Assembly: GCA_041674105.1 (NCBI GenBank)
Contig: JBAYWK010000002.1
Span: 79,411-143,410, forward strand
Reading direction: 5' to 3'
DNA length: 64,000 nt
Source of the DNA: Minisyncoccota bacterium
GTDB lineage: Bacteria > Patescibacteriota > Minisyncoccia > Phycocordibacterales > DATDWN01
In this document: in pieces, positions 259-40,274 of the stretch
Position numbering within the stretch: position 1 is the stretch's first letter
Layout: each line of letters starts with the position of its first letter
The notes under the pieces: generated by a model
Seen by the model: the letters and a program-made list of their open reading frames with translations, nothing else
The model's database searches: none
What the model was told of the DNA's origin: nothing
Translations under genes and position numbers: made by a program

Positions 259-2970
259 TTATGATATTTTAATAGATCCTTCTATTATACCACCATTTTT
301 TGAGAACGCGGCCACTAAAGCTTTCCTGAGCTCTTCTACTAAAACAATAGATAAGCTAACAACTATAATCAAAATCCAGTCATTTAAACTAAGAGCTGTT
401 GTTTTCAAGATTGACTGCAAAGGACCAAAATAAACGGCCAATACCTGAAGTGAAATAATAATCAAAAGAGACCCCCAAACATACAGATTACTAAATATTT
501 CTTTACTAAATATAGTTTTATTTTCAAATCTACTATTAAAAATATTAAGCCACTGAAAAGCTGCCAAAGCCGTTAGTGTCACAGTAGAAGCTTTCAGAAA
601 CCCTTCTTCTGCATAATAAAGATCAAACAAAAACAGAGAGCCTATCATCATGGTCAAACCCATAATGATTATTCTCTGCATCATAATACTATCTACAAGC
701 TTATAGGACTTTCTTCTACCAATAGAAAGCAAATCCTTTTCTTTTGGCTCCATAGACAAAGCGGTAACCAAAAAACCATCTGTGACAAAATTCAACCAAA
801 TAATCTGACTAGCTAAAATAGGCAATGGATACCCTAACAAAATAGCCCCTACGATAGTAAAAACTTCTCCAGAACTAGTAGAAAATAAGTAAAAAATAAC
901 TTTCTTAATAGTTATATAAATATTACGACCCTCTTCTATGGCTGACAAAATACTACCAAAATTATCGTCCTGTAAAATAATATCCGAAGATTCTTTGGCA
1001 ACCTCAGTACCTATTTTACCCATAGAAACACCGAGATCCGCGGCAGCCAAAGACAATGCATCATTTACACCATCTCCTGTCATAGCAATCACTTTTTTAT
1101 CTTTGTGATAAAGTTCAATAATTTTTAATTTATCTTCCGGTGTCACTCTAGCAAAGATAGAAATACTTGGAAGCATCTCTAAGAGTTTACTCTCCTTTGA
1201 GTCAGCCATCTCTGCCCCAGTCATAACAATATCTCCTTCAGAATATATACCTGTTTCCCTGCCGATAGCTTTGGCTGTTTCTATATGATCACCAGTAATC
1301 ATAATAACCTTTACCCCAGCTTCTTTGGCAGAGGAGATCACCCCAGAAACTTCCTCTCTTATACTGTCACTTATACCAACAAAACCAACAAAACATAAGT
1401 CAGGCAAAGAGGTGGGTTCATTCAAATCTGTAGAGCCCGTGTCCATTGCCAAACCAATGACTCTAAGCCCTTCTTTAGATATTGAGAGGACTGCATTGTG
1501 GATATCTTTTAAGTCGGAATTATTTATAGGAAGACATTTTCCTTCTTTCCAAATACTCTTTGACCTAGAAATAATTATTTCTGGTGCCCCAACAACCGAT
1601 ATCATCCTCCCCCCAGAGACATTGTTACCTACAGCATGATATTTCAAATGAGAATTGAAAGGTATTTCAAATATTTTACTATGTTCCCTTTCTAAATCAT
1701 TTTTATTAAAACCAATCTTTTGTGAAAAGACTGACATCGCGACTTCAGTAGGATCTCCCTTGGTCCTCTGCCACATTTTATTTTCATCAGAATAAGCCGC
1801 AGCACCACCAGAAACAAAACTTGAAACTTTACCTAAAAATAAAAGATCTAAATGATCCGCTGGAGATATGACTTCACCCAGATAAGAAACATCCCCTTTT
1901 GGTTCGTAACCATTTCCAGTAATTTCATAGCTTTTCCCCGACACATAGACCTTTTTAACCATCATCTGGTTTAAAGTGATTGTCCCCGTTTTGTCTACTG
2001 CGATTATCTCTGCTTGACCCAAAGCTTCCACTGCTTGTAATTTTCTAACCAAAGCATTCTTCTTACTCATCCTATACATTCCTGTGGCCAAAATAATAGT
2101 AACGACCACAGGCAACCCTTCTGGGATAGCAGAAACAGCCACAGCTACAGCTACAGAAAACATTTCTAGAGCAGATATACTTTTCATAACACCGACTAAG
2201 AAAATAAATGCACTAGCACCCAAGACAGAGAGAATTATCATTCTAGACAGATTTTTTATACTCTTTTTTAAAGGCATATCAGAATCTATACCAACCAATT
2301 TTTTTGATATCTTACCTATGACAGTATTTACTCCTGTAGATACTACTACTGCTCTAGCTTCACCCTCAATAACATATGTACCATTAAAAACCATATTGAT
2401 CTGGTCTGCCACAGAAAGTCCGTCTTTTTTTATCTCATAAGTATTTTTAGTTATCGGTTCAGATTCACCAGTCAAAGCAGATTCATCAACTTTAAAGTTA
2501 TTTGCAGACATAAGTCTTGCATCTGCTGGTATCTTATCACCCTCAGTCAACAAAATAATGTCACCAGGCACAAGCTCGTCTGCTAAAAATATTTTTTCTT
2601 TTTCATCACGAAGAACGGTCACATATGTTGTGACCATTTTTCTTAAAGCAGTTAAGGTATTTTGAGCTCTTCCTTCCTGAAAAGTCCCGACTATAGCGTT
2701 GACTATGAGAACCACAAAGATAATAATACTATCCGCCACATCACCCATCAAAAACACCGCTACAGCAGCTATAAGTAATACATATACTACAGGACTTCTA
2801 AACTGCCTAAAAAATATACTAAATAAAGAATCTTTCTTGATTTCAGAAAGTTTATTATAACCATACTTCTCTCTAAGGCTTAAAACCTTTTCCGAAGCTA
2901 GCCCGTGAACAGAAACTTCAAAAGAAACCAAGACATCTTCCCATTTGTGTTTATACCAATTCATATACAA
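259..2970 (-). CDS. P-type cation-transporting ATPase (type II, Ca2+/cation pump-like)
   Basis: 903 aa; phosphorylation motif DKTGTIT, TM4 motif IPEGLP, hinge motifs TGDHIETAKAIG and MTGDGVNDALSLAAADLGVSMG. Confidence 0.85.
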   Translation of the reverse strand: MYMNWYKHKWEDVLVSFEVSVHGLASEKVLSLREKYGYNKLSEIKKDSLFSIFFRQFRSPVVYVLLIAAVAVFLMGDVADSIIIFVVLIVNAIVGTFQEGRAQNTLTALRKMVTTYVTVLRDEKEKIFLADELVPGDIILLTEGDKIPADARLMSANNFKVDESALTGESEPITKNTYEIKKDGLSVADQINMVFNGTYVIEGEARAVVVSTGVNTVIGKISKKLVGIDSDMPLKKSIKNLSRMIILSVLGASAFIFLVGVMKSISALEMFSVAVAVAVSAIPEGLPVVVTIILATGMYRMSKKNALVRKLQAVEALGQAEIIAVDKTGTITLNQMMVKKVYVSGKSYEITGNGYEPKGDVSYLGEVISPADHLDLLFLGKVSSFVSGGAAAYSDENKMWQRTKGDPTEVAMSVFSQKIGFNKNDLEREHSKIFEIPFNSHLKYHAVGNNVSGGRMISVVGAPEIIISRSKSIWKEGKCLPINNSDLKDIHNAVLSISKEGLRVIGLAMDTGSTDLNEPTSLPDLCFVGFVGISDSIREEVSGVISSAKEAGVKVIMITGDHIETAKAIGRETGIYSEGDIVMTGAEMADSKESKLLEMLPSISIFARVTPEDKLKIIELYHKDKKVIAMTGDGVNDALSLAAADLGVSMGKIGTEVAKESSDIILQDDNFGSILSAIEEGRNIYITIKKVIFYLFSTSSGEVFTIVGAILLGYPLPILASQIIWLNFVTDGFLVTALSMEPKEKDLLSIGRRKSYKLVDSIMMQRIIIMGLTMMIGSLFLFDLYYAEEGFLKASTVTLTALAAFQWLNIFNSRFENKTIFSKEIFSNLYVWGSLLIIISLQVLAVYFGPLQSILKTTALSLNDWILIIVVSLSIVLVEELRKALVAAFSKNGGIIEGSIKIS

Positions 2971-4419: not shown

Positions 4420-4905
4420 ATGAAACCTGCTCCAATAATATCTTTTGAAGATTTTGAAAAAATAAGAAACACTTTAGGTAAAATAGTCTGCACTTCTGGT
4501 GGTTATGACCCTATTCACCCAGGACATGTTTCTTGTATAAACGAATCAAAACAATATGGAGATGTTTTAGTGGTTATAGTAAATGGTGACTCCTTCTTAA
4601 AAAACAAGAAAGGTAAGCCTTTTATGGACTTAGAAACCAGATGTCATATCGTCTCTCATATAAAAGAAGTAGATTTTGTGATCCCTTTTGAAATAGAAGA
4701 TGATCAAACGGTCTCAGAAGCTTTAAAAAAACTAAAACCTCATGTTTTTACAAAAGGTGGAGATAGAATAGATAAACACTCAATACCCGAGTGGGATGTG
4801 TGCAAAGAACATAAAATAAAGATTATCTCAGAGGTCGGACACAAGAAGCTTTGGAGTAGCTCGGACTTTTTACATGAATGGGGTGAATTTTGGAAAGAAA
4901 AATAA
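4420..4905 (+). CDS. cytidylyltransferase-like nucleotidyltransferase (RfaE domain II / heptose-1-phosphate adenylyltransferase family)
   Basis: 161 aa; HIGH-type motif SGGYDPIHPGH near N-terminus; overall pattern matches RfaE-II/TagD-like (VNGDSFLKNKKG ... KGGDRID). Confidence 0.6.
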   Translation: MKPAPIISFEDFEKIRNTLGKIVCTSGGYDPIHPGHVSCINESKQYGDVLVVIVNGDSFLKNKKGKPFMDLETRCHIVSHIKEVDFVIPFEIEDDQTVSEALKKLKPHVFTKGGDRIDKHSIPEWDVCKEHKIKIISEVGHKKLWSSSDFLHEWGEFWKEK

Positions 4906-4914
4906 CAAAACAAA

Positions 4915-4939
4915 AAAGACAGCTTGGCTGTCTTTTTTG
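4915..4939. terminator. bidirectional rho-independent terminator between convergent genes
   Basis: AAAAAGACAGC-TTG-GCTGTCTTTTTT hairpin flanked by A and T tracts. Confidence 0.55.
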
Positions 4940-4958
4940 TTTTGAATAACCCCATCAA

Positions 4959-5213
4959 TTATGACAAATGTTTTGAAACCAACTTTGTCATTTCAAACAT
5001 ATTTACTACTGCTTTTCCTCCGAAAACTTTTTTCAAATTTTCGTCAGCAACAATATTTCTCTTGTTCTTTGGATCTTGTAAATCATGTTTCTTTATGTAG
5101 ACCCACAATTTTTTAACTACTTCAGATCTTGGCATAGGACCTTTTCCTACAACAGCCTCTAGTTCAGGGCTAACATTTAAAGGCTTCATAAACGCAGAGT
5201 TTGATTTTGGCAT
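4959..5213 (-). CDS. SWIB/MDM2 domain protein
   Basis: 84 aa; SPELEAVVGKGPMPRSEVVKKLWVYIKKHDLQDPKNKRNIVADENLKKVFG...NMFEMTKLVSKHL matches SWIB consensus throughout. Confidence 0.75.
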   Translation of the reverse strand: MPKSNSAFMKPLNVSPELEAVVGKGPMPRSEVVKKLWVYIKKHDLQDPKNKRNIVADENLKKVFGGKAVVNMFEMTKLVSKHLS

Positions 5214-14342: not shown

Positions 14343-14380
14343 GACTCTCCTCGGAGTCCGAAACTATCTCAAGCTGGCTG
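14343..14380 (+). repeat. 36-bp direct repeat, copy 2 (right boundary of Mrr islet)
   Basis: same sequence as 10827-10865. Confidence 0.8.
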
Positions 14381-14395
14381 CCCGACAAGGATCGT
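14377..14395 (-). repeat. displaced partial copy of tRNA-Gln 3' end
   Basis: minus-strand GATCCTTGTCGGGCAGCC vs tRNA-Gln 3' end GAGTCCTTGTCGGGCAG. Confidence 0.7.
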
Positions 14396-14560
14396 GATTA
14401 CACTTCTCTCCCTCGCCTCTCAAGTTTGCCGTCGCAAACTTTCGGGCTGGGCACCGACTCACGTCTTGGTTTTGCTAAAGCAAGAATCGCTCCGTCGTTC
14501 GAGTCCTTGTCGCAAAACATGTTTTGCTTCGGACATCAAAAACAGCTTCGCTGTTTTTTG
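14396..14560 (-). repeat. tRNA-trailing structured mini-element (family B-like) downstream of tRNA-Gln
   Basis: contains hairpin AAGTTTG-CGACGG-CAAACTT and an inverted copy of the tRNA T-arm (GCGACAAGGACTCGAACG). Confidence 0.55.
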
Positions 14561-27252: not shown

Positions 27253-27256
27253 CATT

Positions 27257-27406
27257 AAAACGAAGTTTTTATACGCTGGATAGGAGCAAGAGTGCCTGTG
27301 CACTCTTGCGAGAGAATCGAACTGACCGGAGCCATGTTTTGCTAGCAAGCAAAACGGGCGAGGTGAGGCCAACAGAAATTTCTGAGCGACGGTGAGGAAA
27401 TTATCT
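27257..27406 (+). repeat. tRNA-trailing structured mini-element (family A-like) downstream of tRNA-Leu(CAA)
   Basis: contains inverted T-arm copy GAGAATCGAACTGACCGG and hairpin AATTTC-TGAGCGACGGTGAG-GAAATT. Confidence 0.55.
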
Positions 27407-27434
27407 GGGTTTCGATTCTCCCTCCCGGCACATT
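27407..27434 (+). repeat. displaced direct copy of tRNA-Leu(CAA) 3' end
   Basis: TTCGATTCTCCCTCCCGGCACATT identical over 24 nt to 27233-27256. Confidence 0.85.
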
Positions 27435-28427: not shown

Positions 28428-28429
28428 CA

Positions 28430-28549
28430 TAAAGAGAATCTTTGTGGCCCGATGAGAACAGTTTGTCGGTCTACGAGCCTAGCAAGGCTTGTCGACAAAC
28501 TGGTGACCAGAAAAATCACTTGCGACGGCAAGTGATTTTTCGAGGGAGA
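28430..28549 (+). repeat. tRNA-trailing structured mini-element (family B) downstream of tRNA-Trp
   Basis: GAACAGTTTGTCGGTCTACGAGCCTAGCAAGGCTTGTCGACAAACTGG core plus hairpin AAAATCACTTG-CGACGG-CAAGTGATTTT; near-identical copy at 38951-39083. Confidence 0.7.
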
Positions 28550-28568
28550 GATTCGGGGTGGGCCCGCA
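28550..28568 (+). repeat. displaced direct copy of tRNA-Trp 3' end
   Basis: GATTCGGGGTGGGCCCGCA vs tRNA GAGTCGGGGTGGGCCCGCA. Confidence 0.8.
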
Positions 28569-30705: not shown

Positions 30706-30723
30706 TGTGCGCCGGGAAGGATT
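30706..30723 (-). repeat. displaced direct copy of tRNA-Tyr 3' end
   Basis: TGTGCGCCGGGAAGGATT identical to 30888-30905. Confidence 0.85.
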
Positions 30724-30887
30724 ATTCCGCGAGTAAAATTTTGCCGTCGCAAAATTTTCTCGTGTCCGCAGCTCGCGACCCAGTCTGCTGACTGGGTACC
30801 CCGCTCCGCTTTTCGAATCCTTACGTAAACCTCTCCCAGAGGTTTACTCCCAGCGCAAAAGCAAAAATCCTCTTACGAGGATTTTTC
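30724..30887 (-). repeat. tRNA-trailing structured mini-element (family A) downstream of tRNA-Tyr
   Basis: reverse complement reads GGATTCGAAAAGCGGAGCGGGGTACCCAGTC-TGCTGA-GACTGGGTCGCGAGCTGCGGACACGAG...AAAATTTTG-CGACGG-CAAAATTTT, co-linear with 38713-38874 and 62099-62264. Confidence 0.7.
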
Positions 30888-30889
30888 TG

Positions 30890-30972
30890 TGCGCCGGGAA
30901 GGATTCGAACCTTCGTAGGCCGAAGCCGACAGATTTACAGTCTGTTGTAATTGACCACTCTACCACCGACGC
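30890..30972 (-). tRNA. tRNA-Tyr (anticodon GTA)
   Basis: GCGTCGG acceptor, anticodon loop CTGTAAA, long variable arm CGGCTTCGGCC, T-arm GAAGGTTCGAATCCTTC. Confidence 0.8.
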
Positions 30973-38187: not shown

Positions 38188-38508
38188 ATGTCTATTAAAA
38201 ACGAAAGGACTGTAGAAGTTATAAAAGATTTGGCTGCAAAATTTCTGACCTATGAAGGCAACAAGTCTTCCTTGATAACCGTAACCAGTTTAAATATGTC
38301 AAAAGATGGTAAAAGATGTACTATCTTTTTTACTGTATTTCCTGAAACTCTACAAAAAACAGCTTTAGAATTTGCCAAAAGAAAGAGAAGTGAATTCAAA
38401 AAATATGTGCAAAATAACTCAAAATTAGGTAGAATTCCTTTTATGGATTTTGAGATAGATATGGGTGAAAAGAATAGACAAAAAATTGACGAACTCCTGA
38501 ATGGGTAA
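38188..38508 (+). CDS. rbfA: ribosome-binding factor A
   Basis: 106 aa, KH-like RbfA pattern, position directly after infB. Confidence 0.8.
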   Translation: MSIKNERTVEVIKDLAAKFLTYEGNKSSLITVTSLNMSKDGKRCTIFFTVFPETLQKTALEFAKRKRSEFKKYVQNNSKLGRIPFMDFEIDMGEKNRQKIDELLNG

Positions 38509-38516
38509 TAAAATAA

Positions 38517-38588
38517 GGCCTGGTAGCCAAGTGGTAAGGCATTCCTCTGCAAAAGGAATATACGGCGGTTCAATTCCGCCCCAGGCCT
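38517..38588 (+). tRNA. tRNA-Cys (anticodon GCA)
   Basis: GGCCTGG acceptor, anticodon loop CTGCAAA, T-arm GGCGGTTCAATTCCGCC. Confidence 0.8.
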
Positions 38589-38620
38589 CCCAAATAATTT
38601 TATTTTTGGAAAAATAATAT

Positions 38621-38705
38621 GCCCGGATGGCGGAACTGGTATACGCGCACGACTTAAAATCGTGTCTCGCAAGGGATGTGGGTTCGATTCCCACTCCGGG
38701 CACCA
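38621..38705 (+). tRNA. tRNA-Leu (anticodon TAA), CCA encoded
   Basis: GCCCGGA acceptor, anticodon loop CTTAAAA, long variable arm, T-arm GTGGGTTCGATTCCCAC. Confidence 0.85.
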
Positions 38706-38712
38706 AAAAATC

Positions 38713-38874
38713 AAATGTTGATTTTTTGATCCCAGAGAGCAAGGCAATGTTATTGCCTTGCGTTGGGAATCGAAAAGCGGAGCGGTCTACAGTCACACCA
38801 GTGACTGTCGCGAGTTGCGGACACGAGAAAAATTTTCGACGGAAAATTTTTACTCGCGGAAGATTCCCCACCAC
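38713..38874 (+). repeat. tRNA-trailing structured mini-element (family A) between tRNA-Leu(TAA) and tRNA-Lys
   Basis: hairpins AAAAAATCAA-ATG-TTGATTTTTT, GCAAGGCAAT-GTT-ATTGCCTTGC, then GGGAATCGAAAAGCGGAGCGG, ACAGTCAC-ACCA-GTGACTGT, CGCGAGTTGCGGACACGAG, AAAATTTTC-GACG-GAAAATTTT. Confidence 0.7.
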
Positions 38875-38950
38875 GCATCCATAGCTCAGTTGGTAGAGCA
38901 ACTCCCTCTTAAGGAGATGGTCGCAGGTTCAAATCCTGCTGGGTGCACCA
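38875..38950 (+). tRNA. tRNA-Lys (anticodon CTT), CCA encoded
   Basis: GCATCCA acceptor, D-arm GCTCAGTTGGTAGAGC, anticodon loop CTCTTAA, T-arm GCAGGTTCAAATCCTGC. Confidence 0.8.
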
Positions 38951-39083
38951 CAGAAAAAAGTAATCTTATTACTTTTTGTCAGGATTTGAACAGTTTGTCG
39001 GTCTACGAACCTAGCAAGGCTTGTCAACAAACTGGTGCCTAGAAAAATTACTTGCGACGGCAAGTAATTTTTTGAGGGAAAAT
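38951..39083 (+). repeat. tRNA-trailing structured mini-element (family B) downstream of tRNA-Lys
   Basis: TTGAACAGTTTGTCGGTCTACGAACCTAGCAAGGCTTGTCAACAAACTGG and hairpin AAAATTACTTG-CGACGG-CAAGTAATTTT; co-linear with 28430-28549. Confidence 0.7.
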
Positions 39084-39099
39084 TCCTGCTGGGTGCACA
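39084..39099 (+). repeat. displaced direct copy of tRNA-Lys 3' end
   Basis: TCCTGCTGGGTGCACA vs tRNA TCCTGCTGGGTGCACC. Confidence 0.8.
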
Positions 39100-39505
39100 C
39101 GATTCAAAAACAGCATGTTATGCTGTTTTTGTTTACGTGTGCAAGACGGAGCGCGACGGCGCGAGTCCAGGTCGGGAAAATTTTTAGCAAAAAATTATTC
39201 CTGACCACAAGAACTTCCAGATTTTTTCTTACATGTGCAGACTGGAGCGGGTACCAGCTCACTAGGGCTGGTCGCGAGGTCAGGGTCCGAGGAAATTTTC
39301 GAGCGACGGCGAGAAAATTATCCAGGACACATGATTCTTGAGTGACAACTAAATAAAATACCCAATTGGGGTACTAATCCTGTAAGGATCGATATCCTGC
39401 CACAATAATACTGGAGTCCAAGGAAATTTTGTTTTGACGAAAACAAAATTATCCAGGACACATGAACTAAAATTATTCCTGACCACAAGGACTGTTTCAA
39501 ATTTT
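39100..39505 (+). repeat. tandem array of further mini-elements, each ending in a progressively degenerate copy of the tRNA-Lys 3' end
   Basis: units end AAAATTATTCCTGACCACAAGAAC (39200), AAAATTATCCAGGACACATGATTC (39324), AAAATTATCCAGGACACATGAAC (39455), AAAATTATTCCTGACCACAAGGAC (39478); unit 39223-39323 is family A (GGAGCGGGTACCAGC-TCACTAGG-GCTGGTCGCGAGG...AATTTTC-GAGCGACGGCGA-GAAAATT). Confidence 0.6.
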
Positions 39506-39541
39506 TTATACTTGTGTAAAGTGCAAACCAAAGAATAAAAT

Positions 39542-39742
39542 CTACTCCTGTATCAACTTCACAGCATAAACTATTGGAGCTAGAGCTGTCCTAGTCATCA
39601 TTTTAAGCGTTTCATTATTTTCTATTACCTTGGCCATAGGAGGACTGGTTTTATAATAAGCCTCTACAAATTTTTGACCTACCTCATTGGTTAATAGTTT
39701 TTCATCTCTAAAATTCCTCAGCATCTCGACCTCTGGTTCCAT
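39542..39742 (-). CDS. hypothetical small protein
   Basis: 66-aa ORF, weak support. Confidence 0.2.
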   Translation of the reverse strand: MEPEVEMLRNFRDEKLLTNEVGQKFVEAYYKTSPPMAKVIENNETLKMMTRTALAPIVYAVKLIQE

Positions 39743-39903
39743 AGGGCTTCCATAAGCAGCTGTAGCTATAAAACATGAACTACTAGAAGTAGGAGCTACT
39801 ATTTTACATATTTTACAATCTCACCTTAGTAGCAAAACAAAGACCTCTCATTTCATTTAACCTCTTCCATTTTTTGAAAAAATAATATAAAGTATAAATC
39901 ATT

Positions 39904-39985
39904 GGGCAAGTGGCGGAATTGGTATACGCGCTAGTCTTAGGAACTAGTGCCTCACGGCTTGGGAGTTCGAGTCTCCCCTTGCCCA
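39904..39985 (+). tRNA. tRNA-Leu (anticodon TAG)
   Basis: GGGCAAG acceptor, anticodon loop CTTAGGA, long variable arm TGCCTCACGGCTT, T-arm GGGAGTTCGAGTCTCCC. Confidence 0.8.
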
Positions 39986-39990
39986 CAAAA

Positions 39991-40013
39991 CAACAAACAC
40001 CGAAAGGTGTTTT
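39991..40013 (+). terminator. rho-independent terminator after tRNA-Leu(TAG)
   Basis: AAACACCGAAAGGTGTTT + TTGTTTT; same hairpin recurs at 53862-53882. Confidence 0.5.
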
Positions 40014-40274
40014 TGTTTTGGGGCAAGGAGAAAAGTCTGGGAGACTTTTCGTGGAGACTTGAAAACCTATCACAGGTCTTTATGAACAAAGTGAAATAAA
40101 AAAACAGAACAGGTATACAGATTCTGTAAGAATCTAAATTCCTCTCTCGTCTACCAGAATGGAACTTATCGGTTTTTTAGAAACCAAAATACGGGACGGT
40201 GTGAAAGCGCATGTACGACTTTTAGAGACTTGGAGACTGTCTGAGATAGTTTTAGAGCAAAGCAAATAAAAATA

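Follow-up and report, generated by a model that had tools for sequence, protein, structure and literature searches.

Structured modules copying the 3′ half of the adjacent tRNA, and a candidate mosaic array of them behind tRNA-Lys in a Minisyncoccota bacterium

Phages and genomic islands integrate at a bacterial attachment site (attB) that lies in the segment of a tRNA gene running from the T-loop to the 3′ end. Arrays of exchangeable units are known from integron cassettes, with their attC sites, and from the IMEX (integrative mobile elements exploiting Xer recombination) arrays of CTX-phi and TLC at dif; BOX, REP/BIME, Correia and RUP represent the modular intergenic repeats and miniature inverted-repeat transposable elements (MITEs), and the large non-coding RNAs ROOL and GOLLD often lie beside tRNAs. 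Processing or stability signals that resemble tRNA have been described in mascRNA at the 3′ end of MALAT1, in the tRNA-like domain of transfer-messenger RNA (tmRNA) and in bacterial YrlA (PMC11693755, PMC3985003, PMC4201824), and group I introns are common in the tRNAs of Patescibacteria (PMC13011429). Here we report on the units that follow a tRNA cluster in a 64,000-nucleotide (nt) stretch of a Minisyncoccota bacterium (contig JBAYWK010000002.1, positions 79,411 to 143,410; hereafter the window, whose own numbering is used throughout). The cluster has the order Cys-Leu(taa)-Lys(ctt)-...-Leu(tag), lies immediately 3′ of infB-rbfA, and is accompanied by members of an apparently undescribed superfamily of tRNA-trailer modules of about 110–190 nt. 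An initial annotation had described the serial integration of mini-elements at this place; its units, hotspot and accretion hold, and its gradient of attachment (att) sites and its reused, decaying att site do not.

Two covariance models define membership of this superfamily: R1, built from family-A copies, and R2, built only from Lys-slot modules of other genomes, whose loci and contigs are designated by L-numbers below. The window comes from Candidatus Paceibacterota (Patescibacteria), its RbfA being identical to a protein encoded on a 145-kb contig of a metagenome-assembled genome in NCBI. It has a G+C content of 35% and ten tRNA genes (ARAGORN, Rfam). Seven of these have behind them, on their own strand, a unit recovered by R1 as well as R2 (types A, A′, B, D and E). 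Behind an eighth, tRNA-Leu(tag), lies a C1-type module that neither model detects; only tRNA-Cys and tRNA-Val lack a module, and no significant R1 or R2 match was found elsewhere in the 64 kb. The recovery of A, A′, B, D and E units by one model derived from family A and another derived from foreign Lys slots assigns them, at the level of sequence, to a single superfamily, to which all units of the array described below belong except C2. A pattern scan of 185,579 species genomes, from which the roughly three quarters of matches that were chance matches in GC-rich genomes were dropped, places family A in over 20 assemblies of Patescibacteria, where the tRNAs that it follows are those for Arg, Tyr, Gly, Leu, Val, Ala, Glu, Ser, Lys and Ile. 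Modules always lie directly behind a tRNA and in its orientation. Two matches to the family-A pattern in a scan of viral contigs were rejected as chance, since they fall inside coding DNA of 68% GC.

The canonical module opens behind the tRNA with an A-run, a GC hairpin and a U-run, followed by an arm antisense to the 3′ strand of the acceptor stem, a P2 hairpin of 9–10 base pairs (bp), an arm antisense to the 3′ strand of the T-stem and the T-loop, the core, and finally a direct copy of the 3′ parts of T-loop, T-stem and acceptor. P2 has this length in 20 of 26 copies; its sequences are unrelated to one another, and its loops read GUU or GGG(U). The core, of about 90 nt, is a three-way junction in which GGAG-P4-CGAG precedes a P5 hairpin with a GACG loop. 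Across 27 aligned family-A copies the junction nucleotides are invariant and the helices vary freely, with compensation: compensatory changes occur in 23 of 35 pairs, 97.0% of cells are paired (77.1% after shuffling, 31–45% with slid partners), and compensatory cells number 181 against 58 in shuffles. None of the 500 shuffles came up to what was observed (covariation score 0.534 against 0.160). G-U cells outnumber A-C cells in this alignment by 23 to 7, which points to the tRNA-sense strand as the folding strand. The core is under selection for base-pairing on that strand, and compensatory change beyond both shuffled and slid controls, together with a strand-specific excess of G-U, is the pattern looked for in a structured non-coding RNA.

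The arms of the modules match the local tRNA. The core-adjacent arm is the exact reverse complement of the T-loop of its own tRNA at 21 of 22 loci, and the anti-acceptor arm pairs at 7 of 7 positions at 11 of 22 loci, compared with 8% for non-cognate tRNAs; because a search for this arm that allowed G-U was noisy, with U-runs pairing spuriously, a position-specific version was used. Arms and copies follow the local tRNA in this way at 13 or more tRNA species. Folding of the Tyr and Glu modules alone predicts that an acceptor-like helix stacks on one resembling the T-stem while P2 branches off, and thus a tRNA-like outline in which the position of the T-loop is taken up by the core. When the module is folded together with its tRNA, the T-loop and the 3′ strands of the T-stem and acceptor of the tRNA are predicted to pair with the module arms in one rod, and the distal copy would complete the tRNA body. 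For the full Glu transcript (62025–62285) the with-tRNA fold is predicted to be the preferred one (−137 versus −115 kcal/mol), and the same preference is predicted for Tyr (30706–30972, minus strand).

A promoter scan of the cluster and the array gave one good candidate promoter for the whole region, TTGACG and TAAAAT at a spacing of 17 nt (38486–38514, plus strand) just 5′ of tRNA-Cys, and no credible promoter-like site inside the array. The modules could in principle be purely cis-acting terminator or 3′-processing parts of the tRNA unit, the arm building a duplex for termination or for RNase III and the variation between strains amounting to indel noise. Their constant position and orientation would fit such a role, as would the near-perfect hairpins of 20–28 bp, to which the 3′ strand of the tRNA acceptor contributes along with A-run, GC clamp and U-run, and the persistence of complementarity between the anti-acceptor arm and the tRNA after the distal copy has been lost. 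We nevertheless judge it very unlikely, since a cis-acting part would account neither for a conserved 90-nt three-way-junction core with invariant junctions nor for interchangeable core families in one slot, near-identical cores in different slots and multi-core arrays; pairing with the acceptor strand would also unfold the tRNA, and tRNA-Val and tRNA-Cys of the window function without a module. Hairpins with U-runs do follow several tRNAs, but the conserved junction core comes after them, which is not the picture of a terminator alone.

Between tRNA-Leu(taa) (38621–38705) and tRNA-Lys(ctt) (38875–38950; both on the plus strand, as are the other tRNAs and the units of this cluster) lies a family-A module (38706–38874; R1 112.9 bits at 38759–38872, and fold), in agreement with the initial annotation. 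It consists of a hairpin with U-run (38706–38727), a degenerate anti-acceptor arm (38728–38737), a P2 hairpin (38739–38761), an anti-T arm with TCGAA (38763–38774), the three-way-junction core and a truncated T-stem-3′ copy, GATTCCCCACCAC (38862–38874). The family-B element that had been placed after tRNA-Lys is likewise present as unit u1 (38951–39098; R1 46.4 bits at 38975–39091). In u1 a hairpin (38954–38977) is followed by the anti-T arm TCAGGATTTGAAC (38979–38991), a 12-nt exact inverted repeat of tRNA-Lys positions 38927–38938, by the core (38992–39079) and by a direct copy of the tRNA-Lys end, AATTCCTGCTGGGTGCAC (39081–39098, 94% over 18 nt). The u1 core is identical to that behind tRNA-Trp at 81 of 88 positions (92%), with no indels and with different arms.

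At least four more units had been counted beyond u1, and this count is correct: R2 recovers u2, u3 and u4b, to which a C2 fragment and a remnant are added. Unit u2 is an E-type module (39099–39214; R2 56.7 bits, E=7e-16 at 39132–39216) with homologues in L114 and L130. Its P4 has shrunk to GCGCGACGGCGCGA, its hairpin (39105–39131) and ACGTGTGCA (39135–39143) form a long imperfect palindrome with the end of the u1 copy, and its 3′ end, X (39197–39214), is the 3′ strand of P5 followed by the tail CACAAG. Unit u3 is a complete D-type module (39215–39334; R2 79.6 bits, E=4e-23 at 39228–39338; R1 44.5 bits) with the 5′ strand CTTACATGTGCA (39228–39239), a core (39240–39328) and a 3′ end, Y (39320–39334), made of the P5 3′ strand and the tail CACATGA; this tail matches the tRNA-Lys end plus trailer of the relative L112. 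Unit u4a, assigned by sequence identity, is a C2-type core without its 5′ part, followed by GATATCCTGCC (39338–39401); it is 88–94% identical to the C2 cores of L075, L107, L129 and L174, and within GATATCCTGCC (39391–39401) the 7-nt ATCCTGC is a true copy of the T-stem 3′ strand of tRNA-Lys. Unit u4b is an internally deleted D-type copy from which P4 is gone (39410–39465; R2 41.7 bits, E=4e-11 at 39390–39469) and which terminates in a second Y (39451–39465). The last piece, a remnant of 27 nt (39466–39492), is a second copy of X (AAAATTATTCCTGACCACAAGGAC, here X′), 96% identical to 39191–39215. We read the Lys-slot region, with about even confidence, as a mosaic tandem array in which u1, u2 and u3 are complete, u4b is internally deleted, and a C2 fragment and the 27-nt remnant complete the set. 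The G+C content of the array region is 42–53%, compared with 35% for the genome. No plausible open reading frame (ORF) occurs in 38706–39492, and a protein-coding reading of the units was rejected, the overlapping ORFs being short and unsupported.

These truncated pieces (u4a, u4b and X′) look like debris, and the decay of distal copies at many loci, as well as a partial direct tRNA-Lys duplicate with an insertion in the T-loop in another lineage (L131/L152), could be read in the same sense, namely that the modules are non-functional remains of partial tandem tRNA duplications and old insertions in neutral drift. Such an origin of the modules as a whole is highly improbable: neutral DNA would lose the invariant junctions and the compensatory pairs across assemblies whose flanking genes are about 68% identical, and it is rare for streamlined genomes of this kind to retain some 170 nt of useless DNA after the majority of their tRNAs. 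Tandem tRNA duplication was also considered as the origin of the scaffold and is doubted, given that the core-side arm is the reverse complement of the T-loop and that P2 is unrelated to the D and anticodon arms.

Every unit had further been taken to end in a version of the tRNA-Lys 3′ end, progressively more diverged along the array. We ran the alignment against shuffled controls that the initial annotation had itself named as the refutation, aligning each of its five strings locally to the 26-nt tRNA-Lys 3′ end, with 5000 shuffles and genome windows as controls. The u1 end matches at 15 of 15 positions (p<0.0002 against both shuffles and genome windows). The other four strings, on units 2–5, align no better than shuffles (ATTCCTGACCACAAGAAC, p=0.39; ATCCAGGACACATGATTC, p=0.80; two further strings, p=0.81 and 0.37) and do not represent decaying copies of a tRNA-Lys att site. 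The five strings contain two near-identical repeat pairs, the second and fifth being 96% identical over 25 nt and the third and fourth identical in their last 21 nt, and there is therefore no gradient of decay. Alignment with homologues from six other genomes shows that ATTCCTGACC and ATCCAGGAC are the 3′ strand of the extended P5 helix of a module, pairing with an upstream GGTCGGGAA or GGTCC..GG, and that these P5 strands are followed by a tail of 6–7 nt, CACAAG or CACATG. Where D and E modules abut tRNA-Lys in relatives, this tail copies the last 3–4 nt of the tRNA plus the local trailer (CACAAAG in L150, CACTAGC in L170, CACAAGT in L172), and the modules in these three loci are flanked by CAC and the local trailer, repeated over 7–8 nt. 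What had been noticed is thus real in so far as short repeats at the ends of modules are linked to the tRNA end, while the similarity that had been quoted is not to the tRNA-Lys 3′ end. A direct repeat at the distal boundary is found in u1, with the 7-nt T-stem copy after u4a, and in many modules elsewhere; u2, u3, u4b and X′ are without one.

The Cys-Leu(taa)-Lys-Leu(tag) cluster is syntenic in relatives, and the contents of its slots differ. The spacer from tRNA-Lys to tRNA-Leu(tag) measures 953 nt in the window, as opposed to 140–221 nt, with one module of type D, E, C1, C2 or a variant, in seven relatives (L112, L129, L140, L150, L168, L170 and L172); this difference, together with the strain-specific slot contents, bears out the proposal that the tRNA cluster is a hotspot at which units have accumulated. 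The closest strain, a sister with nucleotide identities of 89% for IF2, 93% for RbfA and 100% for the tRNAs, has a Leu(taa) slot (L107) whose 5′ module is 87% identical to that of the window. The homology stops exactly after GGGAATCGAA, with a C2 core there and an A core in the window. The Lys slot of the sister strain, read from its distal side, consists of an A core, an X-like string, a D module, a C2 fragment and the T-stem copy, then unrelated DNA; X-D-C2 is common to both strains and the A core replaces E and B of the window, so that the X-D-C2 part of the array is shared by descent and the rest is not. L112 and L114 encode the same RbfA protein, and the former carries a D module behind Lys and a stub behind Cys, the latter an E module behind Lys and a full A′ module behind Cys; a third relative (L111) has a B module in the Cys slot, which is empty in the window (tRNA-Cys(gca), 38516–38592). 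L140 has a scaffold without a core, and C2 cores that are 94–97% identical occur in Glu (L075), Leu(taa) (L107) and Lys (L129) slots, in each case with arms matched locally. Cores have thus been exchanged between slots and between strains exactly at the arm/core junctions, and in this genome several of them have piled up in the Lys slot and undergone partial degradation there. Multi-core arrays occur elsewhere in L028, L013, L075 and L172. In L075, next to tRNA-Glu, a C2 module with a perfect 24-nt copy of the tRNA end and the original trailer comes before an older A module with two mismatches in its copy. Family-A copies within one genome differ throughout P4 and P5.

The L075 arrangement is what would be expected if the units were mini non-autonomous integrative DNA elements whose own attachment site (attP) is the tRNA 3′ end copy, inserted Campbell-style by a recombinase acting in trans, with the newest element proximal and the distal att decaying. 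We consider this explanation unlikely on balance, and it keeps real weight because direct repeats of the tRNA end flanking the modules are the rule and because L075 looks exactly like it. As in integrative elements at tRNA 3′ ends, most modules are bounded by a direct repeat of the last 17–24 nt of the tRNA that begins in the T-loop, the intact tRNA lies proximal, and the better repeat of a tandem array can be the proximal one (L075). The repeat at times runs 1–3 nt past the tRNA (Leu-caa, Trp), terminator-like hairpins follow both the tRNA and the distal copy, modules are present, absent or replaced between strains, and the 7–8 nt repeats around D and E modules would also suit insertion. The modules differ from such elements in measuring only 110–190 nt, in lacking an integrase and in having a repeat that changes with the tRNA species, and they hold an internal inverted copy and a covarying core, with cores swapping apart from the tRNA-proximal part. 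Among the units of the window only u1 has a significant copy, and there can be no single att when arms and copies match so many tRNA species; an element that changed tRNAs would arrive with a 3′ end foreign to the new one, and an essential tRNA present in a single copy would be lost. Insertion of whole elements also predicts something other than the comparison with L107, in which the core is swapped and the tRNA-proximal 5′ module is orthologous, and gives no part to the conserved unpaired junction nucleotides or to the geometry of P2. No ORF or recombinase was found within or adjoining the units, and no integrase near the array, the neighbours being a peptidoglycan-binding protein, IF2 and RbfA; an enzyme encoded at another place in the genome may still act in trans. 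Together with the divergence of copies within a genome, which are old and not recent, these observations tell against the repeated reuse of one att site.

We therefore return to the accretion of cassettes, which is favoured over serial insertion by an integrase because there is no common att, because movement of a whole element would replace the tRNA 3′ end, and because the tRNA-proximal part stays while the core changes and copies within a genome are old. The explanation that we prefer, at about even odds, combines a superfamily of structured modules, made as RNA by read-through, with an array that arose by gain, duplication and deletion of cassettes. The modules would be transcribed by read-through from the tRNA promoter, and the antisense arms and the downstream copy would form a clamp resembling a tRNA minihelix. 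By analogy with known tRNA-like RNAs, RNase P, RNase Z and the CCA-adding enzyme may act on this clamp as a substrate in cis, and the core would thereby be set free as a small RNA that is stable. Alternatively, these arms could sequester the 3′ half of the tRNA itself, giving two competing folds, as the folding predictions suggest. The array would owe its make-up to cassettes that were gained, duplicated and deleted time and again by recombination at a hotspot, rather than to an integrase returning to one att. Integration had initially been set against co-transcribed trailers as the alternative that the array supports; this is a false dichotomy, in that modules with strong RNA-type covariation and without a promoter of their own nevertheless turn over in the manner of cassettes.

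A number of observations weigh against the explanation that we prefer. The covariation alone cannot distinguish a folded RNA from a folded single-stranded DNA, and a terminator-like hairpin stands between the tRNA and many modules, which is odd for an element that has to be transcribed. Only 10 of 24 family-A loci have an intact acceptor part in the distal copy, and at 8 loci without it the anti-acceptor arm still pairs at 7 of 7 positions with the real tRNA; the minihelix clamp is thus not a feature of every locus, and it may be the tRNA itself that the arm is conserved to pair with. Either pairing may accordingly be the functional one. The outer pairs are mismatched at two positions in 7 of the 27 family-A copies, which suggests adaptation after transfer. 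In the Lys-slot interval the full clamp is mostly missing: u1, the only unit there with the copy required for the tRNA-like helix predicted for the Tyr and Glu modules, has neither an anti-acceptor arm nor P2, and u2 and u3 can be closed only through their tails of 6–7 nt. The truncation of u4a, u4b and X′ indicates that at least part of the array is decaying and not functional. Finally, the explanation offers no route by which arms come to match a new tRNA after a core has moved.

A bolder version, which we think quite unlikely, sees in these loci a cassette system of Paceibacteria for small structured RNAs or folded single-stranded DNAs that dock into hairpins resembling the T-arm of tRNA, with a host factor recognising the T-loop or T-arm. 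That the cores would be bounded by boxes derived from the T-loop, each dock being templated on the local tRNA 3′ half, is a proposal in which we place similarly little confidence. Equally doubtful is its possible outcome, in which most tRNA genes would be trailed by a mimic or antisense partner specific to the tRNA, whose competing folds could make the maturation of the tRNA depend on the state of the core. The formal analogy to integron cassettes and IMEX arrays lies in exchangeable units bounded by structured palindromic sites, in a folded single strand that recreates a target duplex and in a composition that varies between strains. It is a formal analogy only, since IntI, attI and dif are absent, the dock is a tRNA T-arm and the cargo consists of RNA-like folds rather than ORFs.

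Comparison with the RNA systems highlights both likeness and difference. The modules share with mascRNA, tmRNA and YrlA a predicted acceptor-like helix on a T-stem-like helix with an extra arm, and co-transcription with a larger unit; from such a co-transcribed tRNA-like outline the action of RNase P, RNase Z and the CCA-adding enzyme may be expected by analogy. Unlike these RNAs, they have a 90-nt junction in place of the T-loop, their helices are copied from the neighbouring tRNA and are specific to the locus, and in more than half of them the clamp is incomplete. ROOL and GOLLD are also structured RNAs that tend to adjoin tRNA genes, but are 5–8 times larger and have no tRNA-copied clamp, and the modules have no Rfam match. 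An upstream 'exon', here the tRNA 3′ end, that forms a hairpin with an antisense segment and is followed by a P2-like hairpin recalls P1 and the internal guide of group I introns; the core is, however, far too small for such an intron and lacks P3–P9, the Intron_gpI model gives no match, and the module lies after the tRNA and duplicates its end. Like BOX, REP, Correia and RUP, the modules are small, structured, multi-copy, modular, intergenic and often co-transcribed. They differ in having no constant terminal inverted repeats, in arms that change with the tRNA, in the divergence of copies within a genome, in their strict tie to tRNA 3′ ends and in unpaired nucleotides conserved across a phylum-level group. 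A MITE would likewise not be expected to have inverted arms that vary with the tRNA, direct repeats of 7–24 nt rather than of fixed length, and dissimilar copies in one genome.

A search of the window and eight related loci with Rfam 15 returned only tRNA, with no other family at gathering or permissive thresholds; at E<=5 the modules were overlapped only by DUF3800-XI in u3 (19.4 bits against a gathering threshold of 37.8, E=0.16) and by terminator-like chance matches. Self-cleaving ribozymes, group I introns, tmRNA/YrlA, ROOL/GOLLD and the guide RNAs of IscB/TnpB were rejected as candidates, as no model matched and the architecture is unfit. No description of such modules was found in the searched literature, where one paper on Patescibacteria tRNAs covers group I introns of the anticodon loop. 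An arrangement in which the tRNA 3′ half is copied in sense and antisense behind the tRNA is thus apparently absent from both sources. If the proposed reading is true, most tRNA genes in a large uncultured lineage of small genomes would be trailed by a folded element of this kind. Whether mimic, decoy, processing tag or switch, it would constitute a class of tRNA-linked RNA not known before, and the turnover of its cassettes next to tRNA genes would likewise be of a new kind, in genomes with very few classical mobile elements. On the practical side, the modules would explain assembly breaks at tRNA clusters and provide strain-level markers that are easily scored. The contigs of close relatives (L107–L111, comprising four of the sister strain and L111) all end inside the tRNA cluster, about 80–335 nt from rbfA, consistent with assembly breaks at repeated modules.

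The array is followed by strain-specific filler that extends to the tRNA-Leu(tag) promoter (39494–39860, strand not assigned); a 66-aa ORF within it (39542–39742, minus strand) has no Pfam family. At the equivalent place the sister strain has unrelated DNA with a 101-aa LAGLIDADG_3 ORF (L174:4431–4736; Pfam E=1.4e-4, at the cut-off), and its tRNA-Leu(tag) gene is strongly unlike that of the window, with flanking proteins 85–96% identical. A homing endonuclease could drive local recombination here. About 250 nt 3′ of the tRNA cluster in L112, a gene for a PemK/MazF-type toxin is found (L112:5408–5794; Pfam E=2e-10). In the window, tRNA-Leu(tag) (39904–39986) is followed by its own C1-type module, which extends to 40151 and comprises a terminator (39987–40019), an anti-acceptor arm (40020–40028), P2 (40029–40051), an anti-T arm (40052–40063), the core and a weak T-stem copy (40136–40151).

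The remaining modules of the window lie outside the cluster. Those behind tRNA-Tyr (30707–30888, minus strand, with a 17-nt exact copy) and tRNA-Glu (62098–62282, plus strand) are complete family-A modules, and that behind tRNA-Trp (28429–28567, plus strand) belongs to family B. The A′-type module of tRNA-Leu(caa) (27254–27431, plus strand) has a 21-nt exact copy of the tRNA end; a few bases 3′ of it, from about 27440, begins an ORF starting MNKILVILGPTATGKSDLA that we take, by eye, to be MiaA-like, and tRNA-Leu(caa) is presumably a MiaA substrate. The A′-type module of tRNA-Gln (14375–14559, minus strand) has a terminal copy that reads GGGCAGCCA (14375–14393, minus strand) and carries CCA, which the tRNA-Gln gene itself does not encode.

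Lineages of higher G+C content (L118/L136/L153, L131/L152, L121 and L135) have different structured segments behind tRNA-Lys that likewise end in a copy of AATCCTGCTGGGCGC; one of these shows a plain acceptor/T minihelix at its 3′ end, and another a partial direct tRNA duplicate with a hairpin in the T-loop. In L006 (about 4700–5000, minus strand) and L031 (about 1420–1750, minus strand) no recognisable tRNA stands before the family-A module; a long, structured and GC-rich stretch (gtttgaattccgtcag ... gacggaattcatt) takes its place and has the look of a tRNA interrupted by an intron or in some other way. An unrelated repeat of about 60–70 nt (GCGGAGCGCCGCACAGGGGATTGCCTTCGGCGCGCTTCGCGAGGTGCGGACCACT) was caught by chance in many Verrucomicrobia/Prosthecobacter contigs (L008, L017, L019, L020, L081, L085 and L086), and L042, L043, L047 and L054 are likely to be further copies of it.

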